A stretch of DNA of 64,000 bases, from assembly GCF_053078305.1 (NCBI RefSeq), contig NZ_CP166879.1. One strand, written 5' to 3'. This document shows positions 55,901 to 61,900 of the stretch, piece after piece. How positions within the stretch are numbered: the first letter of the stretch is position 1; every line of letters starts with the position of its first letter. A program made the position numbers.

Positions 55901-58900
55901 GGTGATGCCGCAGATGTGGCGTCATGCGTTGCCTGGCCTCGGTAACCAGTGGCTGGTGCTGCTGAAAGATACCGCGCTGGTCAGTTTGATTAGTGTGAAT
56001 GATTTAATGCTACAAACCAAAAGCATCGCTACCCGTACCCAGGAACCATTTACCTGGTACATTGTGGCGGCGGCGATTTACCTGGTGATCACCCTGTTGA
56101 GTCAGTACATTCTCAAACGCATTGACCTGCGCGCGACACGTTTTGAGCGGAGGCCCAGCTAATGTTTGAGTATTTACCCGAACTGATGAAAGGGCTGCAC
56201 ACCAGCCTGACGCTGACGGTTGCCTCGCTGATTGTGGCGCTGATTCTGGCATTGATTTTTACCATCATCCTGACGCTGAAAACGCCGGTGCTGGTGTGGC
56301 TGGTGCGGGGTTATATCACGCTGTTTACCGGTACGCCGCTGCTGGTGCAGATCTTCCTGATTTATTACGGGCCGGGCCAGTTTCCGACGTTGCAGGAGTA
56401 TCCGGCACTGTGGCATTTGTTGTCAGAACCGTGGTTATGTGCGCTGATTGCGTTATCGCTGAACAGTGCGGCGTATACCACGCAGCTGTTTTACGGTGCA
56501 ATTCGTGCGATCCCAGAAGGTCAGTGGCAGTCCTGTAGCGCCCTGGGAATGAGCAAAAAAGATACGCTGGCGATCCTGCTGCCGTATGCCTTTAAACGCT
56601 CGCTCTCTTCTTATTCCAACGAAGTGGTGCTGGTGTTCAAAAGTACCTCTCTGGCTTACACCATTACGCTGATGGAAGTGATGGGATACAGCCAGTTGTT
56701 GTACGGACGCACCTACGATGTAATGGTGTTCGGTGCGGCAGGGATTATTTACCTGGTCGTTAACGGCCTGCTGACGCTGATGATGCGTCTGATCGAGCGC
56801 AAAGCACTGGCATTCGAACGGCGGAATTAATGTAGCTGCGTACATTCGCCGGGGGGTTTGTAGGTCTGATAAGACGCGCCAGCGTCGCATCAGACATCAG
56901 CACGGTGCCTGTGCCGGATGCGGCGTGGATGTCTTATCCGGCCTACATAGTGCATAAATTCTTATAATAAAGACGGACAACTTAGTGAGTTGTCCGTCTT
57001 TTTTTATTTCATGCAAATTATTTAATCATATTTATTGCATATAAATTCACTTGATGGCATTGTTATCCCATGCCGCAGACACGGCCAAAAATCATAAGAT
57101 TGACAGACGGGAGTTCCATCATGAAAAAGTTAGTTCTTGCCGCATTACTTGCTTCCTTTACTTTCGGTGCTTCTGCCGCAGAGAAAATCAATTTTGGCGT
57201 TTCAGCCACCTATCCACCCTTTGAATCTATAGGTGCTAATAATGAGATTGTCGGCTTTGATATCGACCTGGCAAAAGCCTTGTGCAAACAAATGCAGGCA
57301 GAATGTACTTTTACTAATCACGCTTTCGACAGCCTGATCCCGTCACTGAAATTCAGGAAATATGACGCCGTAATCTCCGGTATGGATATCACACCAGATC
57401 GTAGCAAGCAGGTATCGTTCACCACGCCCTATTACGAAAACTCAGCCGTCGTGATTGCCAAAAAAGATACCTACAAAACGTTTGCCGACCTGAAAGGCAA
57501 ACGCATTGGGATGGAAAACGGTACTACGCACCAGAAATATATTCAGGATCAGCACCCGGAAGTGAAAACGGTCTCCTATGACAGTTATCAAAATGCCTTT
57601 ATCGATCTGAAAAATGGCCGTATTGATGGCGTATTTGGTGACACTGCGGTGGTTAATGAATGGCTGAAAACCAATCCGCAACTGGGCGTTGCTACTGAAA
57701 AAGTGACCGATCCGCAATACTTTGGCACCGGTCTGGGTATCGCTGTACGTCCGGATAACAAAGCTCTGCTGGAAAAACTGAATAACGCGCTGGCAGCAAT
57801 TAAAGCTGACGGTACATATCAGAAAATCAGCGATCAGTGGTTCCCGCAATAATTATTCATTTGCCGGAGTGGGCGAACACCCACTCCGGCAAAATCACTT
57901 CTCTACGCTAATCCCAGGCGCTGAAACTGCTCTGGCGGCGCATCATTATCTTTCATCAACTGAATCAGCAACGCGATCATCCGGGACTCGATCACATCAT
58001 CATGAATCGGATGTAGCTGCTGCGGATCGTTTTGCAGATCAAACAGCAAATGACCAAACTGATTCAACCCCTTATATTTTTCCTGTGCCGGGATGCGTAA
58101 TACCTGTAACCCTTTGGTAAAACGAAACGGTGGGGCCAGCGATAAAGCCCGCATCTCATCCACCGGATAGCGGCTGTTCATTTTGCAGGACATCAACGTG
58201 TAGTTGGCAATATCATCCTCACGCCCCGGCAGCGCTGCACGCATATACACATAACGCCCATCAGTTACGTTAGCATGACCACTGAAAACACCAAACATCG
58301 CCGAGCTGCGTACTGGTTCATCGTGACTGACCGTTTTCGCCAGCGGTTGCCCCTGCACATCGGGCGGCACTGGCTGTTGAAAAAAGTCATACAACGTTGG
58401 CGCCCAGTCGATCATTTGTACCAGTGCCTGTCGCCGCTCTCCTTTTACACCACTGCGCGGGTCCCAGATAAACAACGGATTATTGGCAACTTCGTTGTAA
58501 TAAGGCATCTGGTTTTTCGCCCACCAGCCATGCTCACCGAGTAAAAAGCCGTGGTCAGTGCCGACAATCAGCATGGTATCTCGCCACAGATCGTGCTCAT
58601 CCATCAGGTCGAGAATGCGCCCCAGGTTGCGATCGCACATCGACACCAGCGAACGATACCGGCAACGGATGTGCTCCACGGCCTCGTCGCTTTCCTGCAC
58701 CCGGCCACGCGGCCAGTCATAATGCGGTCCATCCCAGTTATCTTCATACAAGGAAAGATACTCTTCCGTTGTGTGAAACGGCTCGTGCGGATCAAACGTT
58801 TCGATCTGCAATAACCAGTTATCTTCCGCGTGATTTTTGTGGATAAAGGCACAGCCTGCATCAAACACTTTAGTTTGTGGAAAATCCGCTTCCTGCTGAA

Positions 58901-61900
58901 TATATTCCCGGTTTGCCCAGTCATGGCGCCACAGACCAGAAACACCGCCACCGGTCTGCTTTTGCGGCACCCGTAGCACCTCGGGAATAGGCGGTTGCGC
59001 AACGCTTGCATGCCAGTGATCGCCTTCCTGTCCGCGCACAATCTCCCACGAACTGTAGCGATTATGATAATTCCCGCCGCCATCTTCCCAGTAATGCAAA
59101 TGATCGCTTATCAGGTGGGTATAGATCCCCGCCTTTTTAAGCAGCTCCGGCATGGAATCGTCAAACGGTTCTAACGGCCCCCACTCCCGATGCAGGAAGT
59201 TACATCGCCCGGTATGCAACTCCCGCCGGGCAGGCATACACGGCATACTGCCGACGTAACTGTTTTCAAAGGTGGCGGCATGAGCCGCCAGACGTTGGAA
59301 ATTAGGCGCTTTGGTTAACGCATCGCCATAAGGTGGCAGATAACGTTTATTCAGACTATCGAACAGCAGAATAATCGCTCTCATTACGCCCTACCTTATT
59401 GATTAATTAAATGCGGAAAATGTTGCTGAACCACTTCATAAATTTGCTGACCAATAGTTTCACCGTCCATAATATTCTCTATCGGGATCAGATATTGCCC
59501 TTGTTTCGGGTCAAGACTAACCACATCGAGTAATTTTTTGGAAATAGCAAAAATATCCGCCCAGTCGGTAAATCCGCCGACTTCACCTGCGGCGGTATGT
59601 TCCATTTCAACTTTGAAATCATATTTGGTCAGCGCTTTTTTAACGACCGTTTGTAACATAACGCTACTGCCTACACCGTAACCACAGACAAACAGAATAT
59701 TAATTGTATCTTTCATTTTTAAACCCTTAATATTTAATTAACCCGCGTAAGGACCAAGATAGAATGTTGCAGCGATAAATTTCAGAACTTCACAAATAGC
59801 AGGCCATACGGTTGCCCAGTCAAATATTCCTGTCCAGCCGACGCCATTTTCAGCAAGCCCGGTTAACGGAATAGCCCACACCGTACCGAAGGTCTGAATA
59901 ATACCCAGCAAGAACGTACAGATAATTACGGAACGGTATCCGCCCATGCGGTTTGCTAATACGCCAATTGGACCGCCAGAGAAAAACAGAGGTACAAAGC
60001 CAGGCAATACCATAATTGGGCTGTGAACCAGTAATAAGATCCCCATCGAAAAAATGGTGCCAAAAGTACAGAAGACGAAGCCTAACGTTGCGGCATTGGG
60101 TGAAAAAGGTAACAGCGCTGCAACATCGACAGCAGGAATAGCGTTAGGAATAAAGCGATCTTGCCAGCCTTTAAACGAACCGTTAATTTCGCCCACCATC
60201 ATGCGCACACCCTGCAGCAGAATGACCATATACATGGAGAACTGTAAGCCAAGGTTGATGATATAGATGTACCAGGGCTTGCCTTTCGCCATTAACTGGA
60301 CATTATCGATACCCGTTGATAGCAAGAAACCACCGACAAACAGCGTCATCACAATGGCGATAGCCGTTACGTTATGGTTAAAAATCGCCAGCCACCCGGG
60401 AAGTTTCAGGTTTTCAGCATCGTGCTTTTCAGGGTCACCAAATTTATGGGCGAATTTGGAGAAAAACCACAATCCCAACATCTGGTTATGGGCAATGGTA
60501 AAACCGGCATCTTTGGTAACTTTGGCAATGGGCTTAACAATGAGCGTGGTGGAGAACGCCCAGAATACACCCTTAATATTCCGGCAATAATAATGGATGT
60601 AGTCCAGCTAAAACCCAGCCAAAAGACAATCAACCATAATACCGCCTGAGAATGTGAAACACCGGTATTCCCTGTCAAAAATATCCCTTTGGCACCAGTA
60701 TACCGACCAAATAATACCAGCAGCAGGTTGGTAAAAAACGCCAGTACAAATACATACCCGACATAACCAAAATTATCCCCCAACGCAATTTGCGTTGCCG
60801 CTTTCATTGCGTAGGAATCCATTAAATATCCGTGAACACCATAGGCTTTACTTACGGCTTCTGCTACCGGTTTAAATGTTGCGGAAAACTGGAAACCACC
60901 AAATAACACCATCATTAATCCCACCATGGCGCTGACCATGCCGGTAATAATTTTTATTGGCGATTTCTTATCAAGGGCATAACCAATACCCACCAGCAAA
61001 CCAATTAAAATTGCCGGTTCAGTTAAAAACGTTTGAATAACATCTATGAATTTGGCAAACATCGTCGGAACGCCCTCCATAAGCGTACATTTCCGTTGTC
61101 AATGCATGAACCTTCTGCTGACGTTAATAATGTCTCAGGAAATTTTGTGTTTCGCTAAGCAATGCCTCTGTATGTATTCGGTAAGTGCACTGTAGTAATC
61201 AAAACAGTTCAATTAAAGATCTTATTTGATTATTTGTGATTTGATTTGCAAAAATAGAGCAATATATAACCGTGATCGATCGGTTATTATTAATCGATCG
61301 ATCACGATTATTATTTTGAGTGAATAGTTGTTGCCGAAAAATTTACTGCCGTGATGTATTTAAATTTTTACCAGCAGCGTCAACACTTCATAATGCGCGG
61401 TGTGAGGGAACATATCGAAAAGCTGCACCCGTTCAATGCGATAACCAGGCAGTTCTCGGATATCTTTCGCCATGGTTTGGGCGTTACAGCTGGAGTAGAT
61501 GATAAAACGCGGTGCCATCGTTGAGAGATAATCACACAGCGTTTTACCAATGCCGCGGCGCGGCGGGTTAACCAGCACCAGCTCCGGCACCTCCCCCTGA
61601 GCGGTGGCAAACTGAGTGGAGTCCAGCGCCTGAAATTGCAAACGCGTTAAGCCCAGTTCAGCGGCTGACTGCTTTGCACAGGCAATGGCCTCTGGCGCAA
61701 TTTCGATCCCGGTTAACTGCATGTCAGGCGTCGCGCAGTGTAAACCAAAGCCACCCACACCGCAGAACAGATCCCACATATGTTTAACCGGCAGCTGTCG
61801 TACCCAGTCGCGCGCGGTGGCGTACAGCTGGCTGGCGACCGCCGGATTAGTCTGGAAGAAACTTTGCGGACGGATCCACAGCGGCACATCGTTAAAACGC

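Follow-up and report, generated by a model that had tools for sequence, protein, structure and literature searches.

A 64,000-nucleotide stretch of an Escherichia coli chromosome (RefSeq assembly GCF_053078305.1, contig NZ_CP166879.1), referred to below as the window, carries three genes between artJ and rlmC that encode the enzyme IIC (EIIC) and enzyme IIB (EIIB) components of a phosphotransferase system (PTS) permease of the ascorbate family and a cytoplasmic sulfatase. The trio recurs in distant bacteria, and in some of them it is embedded among the ula genes of ascorbate catabolism. We propose that the module takes up and 6-phosphorylates L-ascorbate-2-sulfate and then desulfates it in the cytoplasm to yield ascorbate-6-phosphate, a reading to which the sequence comparisons presented here lead us to give an even chance of being correct. 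Slightly more tentative is the broader view that this would be an undescribed bacterial pathway for a vitamin C metabolite of the host, which may be widespread in gut Firmicutes and may exist as a stripped-down, ula-borrowing add-on in enterohaemorrhagic E. coli (EHEC) O157:H7, O55:H7, some extraintestinal pathogenic E. coli (ExPEC) and Salmonella. The genes themselves have already been annotated generically in hundreds of genomes, and it is their functional reading that appears to be new.

The three genes are all encoded on the minus strand and are transcribed in the order EIIC, EIIB, sulfatase, which agrees with the original prediction, made from the window alone, of three co-directional genes of these kinds:

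57903..59384, minus strand: sulfatase, cytoplasmic S1 (formylglycine-type), 493 amino acids, intact; assigned by PF00884, PDB sequence matches, alignment and an AlphaFold2 (AF2) model.
59396..59716, minus strand: PTS EIIB (PTS_IIB, ascorbate-type), 106 amino acids, intact; assigned by NCBIfam, alignment to UlaB and PF02302 in orthologues.
59738..61080, minus strand: PTS EIIC of the L-ascorbate/galactitol superfamily, a pseudogene in the window; assigned by alignment to an intact copy (L001) and a split tblastn match.

That prediction also placed artJ and rlmC next to each other in K-12, and the two genes are indeed separated by a spacer of just 198 bp in MG1655. The statement that the module holds no EIIA, regulator or maturating enzyme was extended to the whole 64-kb window, in which no homologues of EIIA, a DeoR-type regulator, the anaerobic sulfatase-maturating enzyme (anSME), the formylglycine-generating enzyme (FGE) or TauE were found. 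Neither in the window nor in any enterobacterial copy do ulaG, ulaD, ulaE or ulaF stand beside the module.

The association of the permease with the sulfatase is most evident outside the enterobacteria. Twenty distinct non-enterobacterial loci with a sulfatase at least about 59% identical were contrasted with 65 loci of a distant sister clade. EIIC and EIIB genes are present near the sulfatase in 19 of the 20 and directly upstream of it in 18, whereas PTS genes lie beside none of the 65 sister-clade sulfatases (Fisher p=5e-18). The commonest layout among the relatives is DeoR-EIIC-EIIB-sulfatase-EIIA, which means that the intact versions with EIIA and regulator, for which a search had been suggested, do exist, in Firmicutes. 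In addition, two metagenomic proteins are sulfatase::EIIA fusions. The conservation of the trio across phyla, together with these fusions, supports the predicted coupling of a Cys-type cytoplasmic sulfatase to an ascorbate-family PTS. The EIICs linked to these sulfatases are 56–69% identical to the E. coli EIIC and 35–40% identical to UlaA, they match the NCBIfam model NF009550, and by these measures they form an orthologous group of their own that travels with the sulfatase. Sulfatase homologues at 62–68% identity are abundant in gut Firmicutes and also occur in Bacillaceae and Olsenella, while the sister clade, at 53–58% identity, is found in Paenibacillus, Streptomyces, rhizobia, Chloroflexi, Planctomycetota and metagenome-assembled genomes (MAGs) of Lokiarchaeota. 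Since a transporter is coupled to the sulfatase in both clades (a PTS in one, ATP-binding cassette (ABC) or major facilitator superfamily (MFS) transporters in the other), the logic of the whole family, as read from gene neighbourhoods, is that an intact sulfate ester is imported and is then desulfated in the cytoplasm.

The connection to ascorbate comes from the genes that surround the module in a subset of these relatives. The ula genes are found next to it in six of the 20 non-enterobacterial loci and in none of the 65 sister-clade loci (p=9e-5), in the following arrangements:

Neobacillus niacini: EIIA-EIIC-EIIB-sulfatase-UlaG-UlaD-UlaE-UlaF, co-directional.
Bacillus sp. SD088: the trio, divergent from DeoR-EIIA-UlaG-UlaD-UlaE-UlaF-PtsI.
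Clostridium MAG: UlaG-EIIA-EIIC-EIIB-sulfatase-X-UlaF-UlaE.
Olsenella: UlaG-UlaE-X-UlaF-transaldolase-transketolase-DeoR-EIIC-EIIB-sulfatase.
Oscillospiraceae MAG: ula genes no more than 10 kb away.
Bacillus FJAT-50079: ula genes likewise no more than 10 kb away; another EIIC/EIIB pair, distinct from that of the module, is also present.

In N. niacini the four catabolic genes score above their NCBIfam cut-offs (UlaG 653/306, UlaD subfamily 327/250, 3-epimerase 442/200 and 4-epimerase 362/257, score/cut-off). The lactonase UlaG is encoded in all six loci, which suggests that the desulfated product is ascorbate-6-phosphate or a very close compound in which the lactone ring is kept. Furthermore, the three non-enterobacterial EIICs nearest to the E. 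coli EIIC (68–69% identity) all come from loci embedded among ula genes.

L-ascorbate-2-sulfate fits such a pathway: a PTS could phosphorylate its free C6 hydroxyl, and the Ula enzymes could act only once the 2-sulfate was gone. In mammals, arylsulfatases A and B cleave this ester, which places its chemistry within the reach of the enzyme class. Metabolomic studies report the compound from human plasma and faeces, and it is also reported from brine shrimp cysts (PMC11322087, PMC10416789, PMC6191929). The original prediction regarded the substrate as not evident, a view that comparative genomics now modifies by allowing one to be inferred, and the sulfated ascorbate that it had proposed as a test substrate is now the favoured candidate. 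A literature search yielded no paper that proposes a PTS–sulfatase pathway for ascorbate sulfate and nothing relevant on the locus tags STM0884-6, Z1091 and ECs0944/5; the only related remark found concerns a sulfatase gene inserted in the ula regulon of Sebaldella termitidis (PMC3219644).

According to the proposed mechanism, the ascorbate-family permease (EIIC plus EIIB) would import the sulfated substrate and phosphorylate it, in the case of L-ascorbate-2-sulfate at C6. The cytoplasmic formylglycine-dependent sulfatase would then strip the sulfate from the phosphorylated product to give L-ascorbate-6-phosphate, the substrate of UlaG, which would enter the UlaG/D/E/F pathway and lead to D-xylulose-5-phosphate; it is in this order, phosphorylation before desulfation, that we infer the two steps to occur. 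The enterobacterial version would borrow the resident ula regulon, with UlaC acting as EIIA and UlaG/D/E/F carrying out catabolism, and its sulfatase would be matured by a formylglycine-forming activity of the host cell. Ascorbate-6-phosphate is the known inducer that releases UlaR. If this proposal holds, the permease would be the first known case of a PTS that transports a sulfate ester, and the enzyme would be the first sulfatase with a sulfo-phospho physiological substrate (ascorbate-2-sulfate-6-phosphate). A function would also be assigned to a conserved but unnamed trio that RefSeq labels just "sulfatase / PTS IIB / PTS IIC", and the ascorbate pathway would be extended to a sulfated host metabolite, with desulfation taking place after phosphorylation and inside the cell.

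The sulfatase belongs to a well-defined fold. Pfam assigns PF00884 (E=2.5e-28) plus SGSH_C, and the PDB sequence matches are all S1 sulfatases or phosphonate monoester hydrolases (PMHs), the best at 9.5e-23. An AF2 model computed from an 86-sequence alignment reached a predicted local distance difference test score (pLDDT) of 93.9 and a predicted template modelling score (pTM) of 0.94, while a run with a 16-sequence alignment (pLDDT 59.8) was discarded. The top 50 Foldseek matches of this model are again all S1 sulfatases or PMHs, with template modelling (TM) scores of 0.65–0.68 and identities of at most 20%, and no solved structure is nearer to the family than 20% identity. The C-x-P-x-R signature noticed earlier is present as C49-M-P-A-R53, in which C49 (CMPAR) is the predicted nucleophile, and the further predicted active-site residues D9, R53, H95, H97, H200, D277, H278 and K290 complete a set that occupies the canonical S1 motifs (xxFDS, DPHEP, TDHG, WxK), except that the lysine of the usual G-K-x-H motif aligns with H95. 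Across 86 homologues D9, C49, P51, R53, H95, H97, H200, D277 and H278 do not vary, and K290 is kept in at least 90% of them. The N-terminus is directly the first beta-strand of the fold, bearing the metal ligand D9. The reported absence of a signal peptide also holds: because there is no hydrophobic leader (no h-region), no twin-arginine motif and no possible upstream in-frame extension, the enzyme is cytoplasmic.

Maturation genes that flank the relatives support the view that the protein is a formylglycine enzyme in which C49 would be the residue converted. Genes for anSME that pass TIGR03942 adjoin the module in two metagenomic loci, L100 and L102 (380.6 and 393.9 bits; cut-off 349.45), one of which also has a TauE exporter. 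In 15 of the 65 sister-clade loci, and also in annotated records from Rhizobium and Streptomyces, the sulfatase has an FGE gene (PF03781, E=1.5e-78) as its neighbour. The missing maturase, which had been seen as a problem, is no barrier, since aslB and ydeM are present in E. coli and a third formylglycine-forming system is suspected there (PMC8379841). A 10-residue loop at 140-149 (the VPQKQTGGGVSG region) and the basic residues H123, R226 and K436 occur in the PTS-coupled clade only and are absent from the sister clade coupled to ABC or MFS transporters; they are candidate ligands of the additional phosphate on a PTS product.

The two permease components are related to the ascorbate PTS, but at some distance from it. 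An intact EIIC homologue matches PF03611 (EIIC-GAT, E=5.5e-97), and it passes NF009550 with 963.8 bits (cut-off 583). The NCBIfam ascorbate IIC and IIBC models match it at E=1e-95 to 1e-105, although with 320.7 bits against 380 it stays below the cut-off of the ascorbate-specific IIC model (NF006919), so that there is no equivalog-level match. EIIB finds its best NCBIfam matches in the ascorbate IIB and IIBC models and is 29% identical to K-12 UlaB, with PF02302 found in its orthologues; its Cys11 (ILFVC11GYGVGSS) aligns with the phosphorylated Cys9 of UlaB (ILAVC9GNGQGSS).

In the window itself, EIIC is broken into two open reading frames (61080..60406 and 60481..59738). The frameshift, which had been noticed from the start, arises because one base pair is missing between 60572 and 60573, near codon 170, by comparison with intact 447-residue copies; intact orthologues have 441–447 amino acids. 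It was not seen in any other copy checked at this site, which comprise the 40 best-matching E. coli genomes, each of them covering 301 nt for a 300-nt query, and the copies L001, L097, L098 and L103, and a strain with a 100% identical sulfatase carries an intact EIIC. Since the deleted base lies outside any homopolymer, a sequencing error is somewhat less likely than a genuine mutation, and with EIIC broken by the frameshift the pathway should be inactive in the window strain. The annotated start of EIIC is an ATG at 61080, followed by GGAGG and a second ATG at 61062 (window 61060-61080), and the latter is probably the true start, because the Enterobacter and Yokenella orthologues have 441 amino acids.

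The module is a strain-variable trait that is found in 566 of 5426 complete E. coli genomes (~10%), including the O157:H7 lineage, always in one copy and always on the chromosome, and it might affect differences in gut or urinary-tract niche. About 410 of the E. coli copies match the window at 99% identity or more, among them those of O157:H7, O55:H7 and O145. A second allele class, present in 155 complete E. coli genomes (90.9% DNA identity, 96–99% protein identity), occupies the same locus, an example being the intact copy of UPEC69 (L098 1501-4680). The divergence of this class is far above that of typical E. coli core genes. Salmonella enterica also carries the trio between rlmC and artJ, with a sulfatase of 86% amino-acid identity, as does Yokenella, with a few additional genes; the trio is likewise present in Salmonella arizonae, and in Enterobacter hormaechei it is found at a different locus. 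The original prediction described the genes as inserted between artJ and rlmC. A recent insertion is, however, unlikely, because Salmonella enterica and Yokenella share the locus and E. coli holds two old allele classes that are ~91% identical, and the module is more likely an old polymorphic locus that was lost or replaced by recombination in most E. coli, including K-12. The K-12 spacer contains no remnant of the module and no definable deletion scar, and the GC content (51–55% in the sulfatase, 42–46% in the PTS genes) carries no clear foreign signature. A plasmid search yielded no PTS-clade copies on true plasmids; it returned sister-clade genes on rhizobial and Streptomyces replicons and a few enterobacterial records that are probably chromosomal.

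When the two E. coli allele classes were compared with each other, and E. coli with Salmonella, the ratios of nonsynonymous to synonymous divergence (dN/dS) were 0.05 for the sulfatase, 0.03 for EIIB and 0.01–0.02 for EIIC, with dS ranging from 0.4 to >2. Such ratios indicate that all three genes are under strong purifying selection, and the module is, on this reading, functional in enterobacteria generally. It is improbable, by contrast, that the enterobacterial module is a non-functional, decaying remnant of a Firmicute-type cassette that has lost its EIIA and regulator. Neither of these genes accompanies any enterobacterial copy, ~90% of E. coli are without the module, and lesions do occur: besides the frameshift in the window, an O157:H7 assembly (TR01) has annotated frameshifts in two module genes and ECNB21-M121 has an IS1 within the module. 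The low dN/dS at appreciable dS contradicts decay, as do the intact reading frames in the O157:H7, UPEC69, YZMc3-1, Salmonella, Enterobacter and Yokenella copies examined, the upstream regulatory block that is kept even across different loci, and the restriction of the EIIC frameshift to the window among the copies checked, so that the decay suggested by the original prediction is not borne out.

Several observations weigh against an ascorbate-2-sulfate pathway, and some of them would suit a different substrate or a different enzyme. Fourteen of the 20 non-enterobacterial loci are stand-alone, without ula genes within 10 kb, in E. coli and Salmonella the module and the ula operon lie far apart, and that UlaC and UlaR serve the module in trans is conjecture on our part. 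The similarity of the conserved block upstream of EIIC to the ulaA promoter region is not significant, as 65 of 500 shuffles score as high. A close homologue (L021) has no PTS nearby, and the distant clade pairs with sugar ABC or MFS transporters and with GH1/GH3 glycosidases, from which it follows that the family is not intrinsically ascorbate-specific. The best solved-structure sequence matches are GlcNAc-6- and galactose-6-sulfatases, choline sulfatase and PMHs, none of which is informative on ascorbate, and the canonical sulfate-contacting Lys (G-K-x-H motif) aligns with H95 in a choline-sulfatase alignment that is ambiguous. The same architecture could thus serve another substrate, such as a sulfated sugar, sugar acid or lactone, with the ula co-location reflecting shared pentose-phosphate metabolism or regulation; the stand-alone loci, the sister clade's ties to sugar transporters and GH1/GH3 enzymes, the activity of the nearest solved relatives on sulfated hexoses or choline, and an EIIC just 39% identical to UlaA and under the curated ascorbate-IIC cut-off are all in keeping with it. 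We nevertheless consider this unlikely, because the adjacent catabolic genes, where present, are always the ula set including an equivalog-level UlaG, no alternative catabolic gene set recurs beside the module, and in N. niacini and the Clostridium MAG the module PTS is the sole permease in the ula operon.

Less probable still is that the "sulfatase" is a phosphatase, phosphodiesterase or PMH of the alkaline-phosphatase superfamily that acts on the PTS product, for example on ascorbate-2-phosphate derivatives, or dephosphorylates an imported compound. Some of the best matches, in sequence as in fold, are formylglycine-dependent PMHs (4upk, 2vqr, 2w8s); PMHs have in common with the enzyme all sequence features tested, and they also need FGE or anSME, so the maturase linkage does not discriminate between the two; the apparent replacement of the sulfate-binding Lys by H95 would agree with such an activity as well. 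A sulfatase is nonetheless indicated by the TauE-type anion exporter that adjoins the module in one locus, by the arylsulfotransferase genes that Enterobacter, Yokenella and a Lachnospiraceae MAG carry adjacent to the module or in its vicinity, and by the fact that nearly all characterised relatives are sulfatases. To our knowledge, ascorbate-2-phosphate is not a natural metabolite, whereas ascorbate-2-sulfate is.

The proposed ascorbate-2-sulfate pathway is closest to the E. coli Ula system for L-ascorbate (UlaABC and UlaG/D/E/F, with the repressor UlaR). The two share the PTS family (EIIC-GAT and PTS_IIB) and, in the Firmicute modules, an EIIA_2 and a DeoR-type regulator; six relatives of the module are embedded in or adjacent to ulaG/D/E/F, and the predicted product of the module is the first intermediate of Ula. 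They differ in that the module EIIC and EIIB are only 39% and 29% identical to their Ula counterparts, with EIIC in the separate model NF009550, and in the added sulfatase step, while in enterobacteria the module is without EIIA, regulator and catabolic genes and is ~3.5 Mb away from ula (K-12 coordinates). With structurally solved S1 sulfatases such as the GlcNAc-6-sulfatases BT4656/BT3177 (S1_11), the choline sulfatase BetC and Silicibacter SpAS1/2, the enzyme has in common the fold, the C-x-P-x-R motif and, as far as the alignments show, the metal and catalytic residues, as well as the anSME or FGE genes beside its relatives. It differs from them in sequence (at most 20% identity, TM ~0.67), in its cytoplasmic location, the Bacteroides glycan sulfatases being exported, in a probable Lys-to-His change at one sulfate-contacting position, in the clade-specific loop 140-149 with R226, H123 and K436, and in a predicted substrate that is also phosphorylated. 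As no structure is closer than 20% and no characterised member was found in this analysis, the family would be a useful target for enzymology.

The sister clade (Rhizobium, Streptomyces, Paenibacillus, Chloroflexi) resembles the module in its cytoplasmic family, invariant active site and adjoining transporter gene, often with an adjacent FGE, but uses sugar ABC or MFS transporters rather than a PTS, has GH1/GH3 enzymes and LysR, PadR or AraC regulators as neighbours, and lacks ula genes. A further parallel is found in Streptococcus pneumoniae, in which an accessory island combines a Lac/cellobiose-type PTS with a sulfatase, a sulfatase-modifying enzyme and a TauE exporter (PMC3302838, PMC3283741). 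Here too a PTS permease is genetically coupled to an intracellular sulfatase, together with a maturase and an anion exporter, and this island is functionally uncharacterised as well; in contrast to the module, its PTS is of the Lac/cellobiose rather than the L-Asc type, its regulator is ROK/MarR, and there is no link to ascorbate genes. In the gut metagenome contig L100, a second, unrelated sulfatase (2805-4169) is coupled to a mannose-type PTS (EIIAB, EIIC, EIID), and this unit adjoins the same anSME and TauE genes as the module, which indicates that the coupling of a PTS to a sulfatase occurs in more than one PTS family.

The DNA around the three genes contains two further elements and the flanking genes:

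61187..61257, minus strand: conserved block CTATTTTTGCAAATCAAATCACAAATAATCAAAT...GTTTTGATTACTACAGTG upstream of EIIC, which probably serves the module as promoter/operator.
61271..61306, no strand assigned: GATC-rich perfect palindrome CGTGATCGATCG-N12-CGATCGATCACG, lying 54 nt beyond the rlmC stop codon.
57121..57852, plus strand: artJ, flanking gene convergent with the sulfatase; from the annotation of near-identical genomes.
61360..62487, minus strand: rlmC, which flanks the module on its upstream side and has the same orientation; from annotation.

The upstream block (~70 bp) is kept in E. coli (both alleles), Salmonella, Yokenella and Enterobacter, and its retention even in Enterobacter, at another locus, makes a regulatory role very likely. 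It shares the strings AATCAyAAATAATC and TTTGATTAC with the ulaA/ulaG promoter region. As to a UlaR operator in the upstream region of the module, the local alignment of this region to the K-12 ulaG-ulaA intergenic region is no better than that of shuffles. An Rfam scan of 57000-62000 gave no match near gathering scores. The palindrome is a perfect 12-bp inverted repeat whose pairing Salmonella keeps through changes on both arms (CATG...CATG), with a G-U intermediate in the second E. coli allele; these paired changes suggest that it is likely the RNA hairpin of an rlmC terminator or a (Dam-sensitive) protein-binding site. The ends of artJ and rlmC beside the module are ~93% identical between the window and K-12, and both genes are unusually divergent among strains (dS 0.13–0.42 for the window, O157:H7, UPEC69 and K-12), a pattern that suggests a hotspot of recombination or diversity at the rlmC-artJ locus, associated with whether the module is present.

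Two sets of neighbouring genes were also observed. Two clostridial ula clusters encode, between sulfatase and UlaF, a protein of ~350 amino acids (L030 6290-7327 and L029 12454-13512; 39% identity); it gives only a faint FG-GAP signal and no NCBIfam match, both clusters are without a recognisable UlaD, and the protein might replace a step of the pathway. Finally, three unrelated organisms have arylsulfotransferase-family genes (PF05935, or a 23%-identical relative) adjoining the module or close to it, namely Enterobacter hormaechei (L012 3466-4881), Yokenella (L014 8542-8763) and the Lachnospiraceae MAG (L022 14461-16383), which hints at a wider link of the module to the metabolism of aryl or enol sulfate esters.

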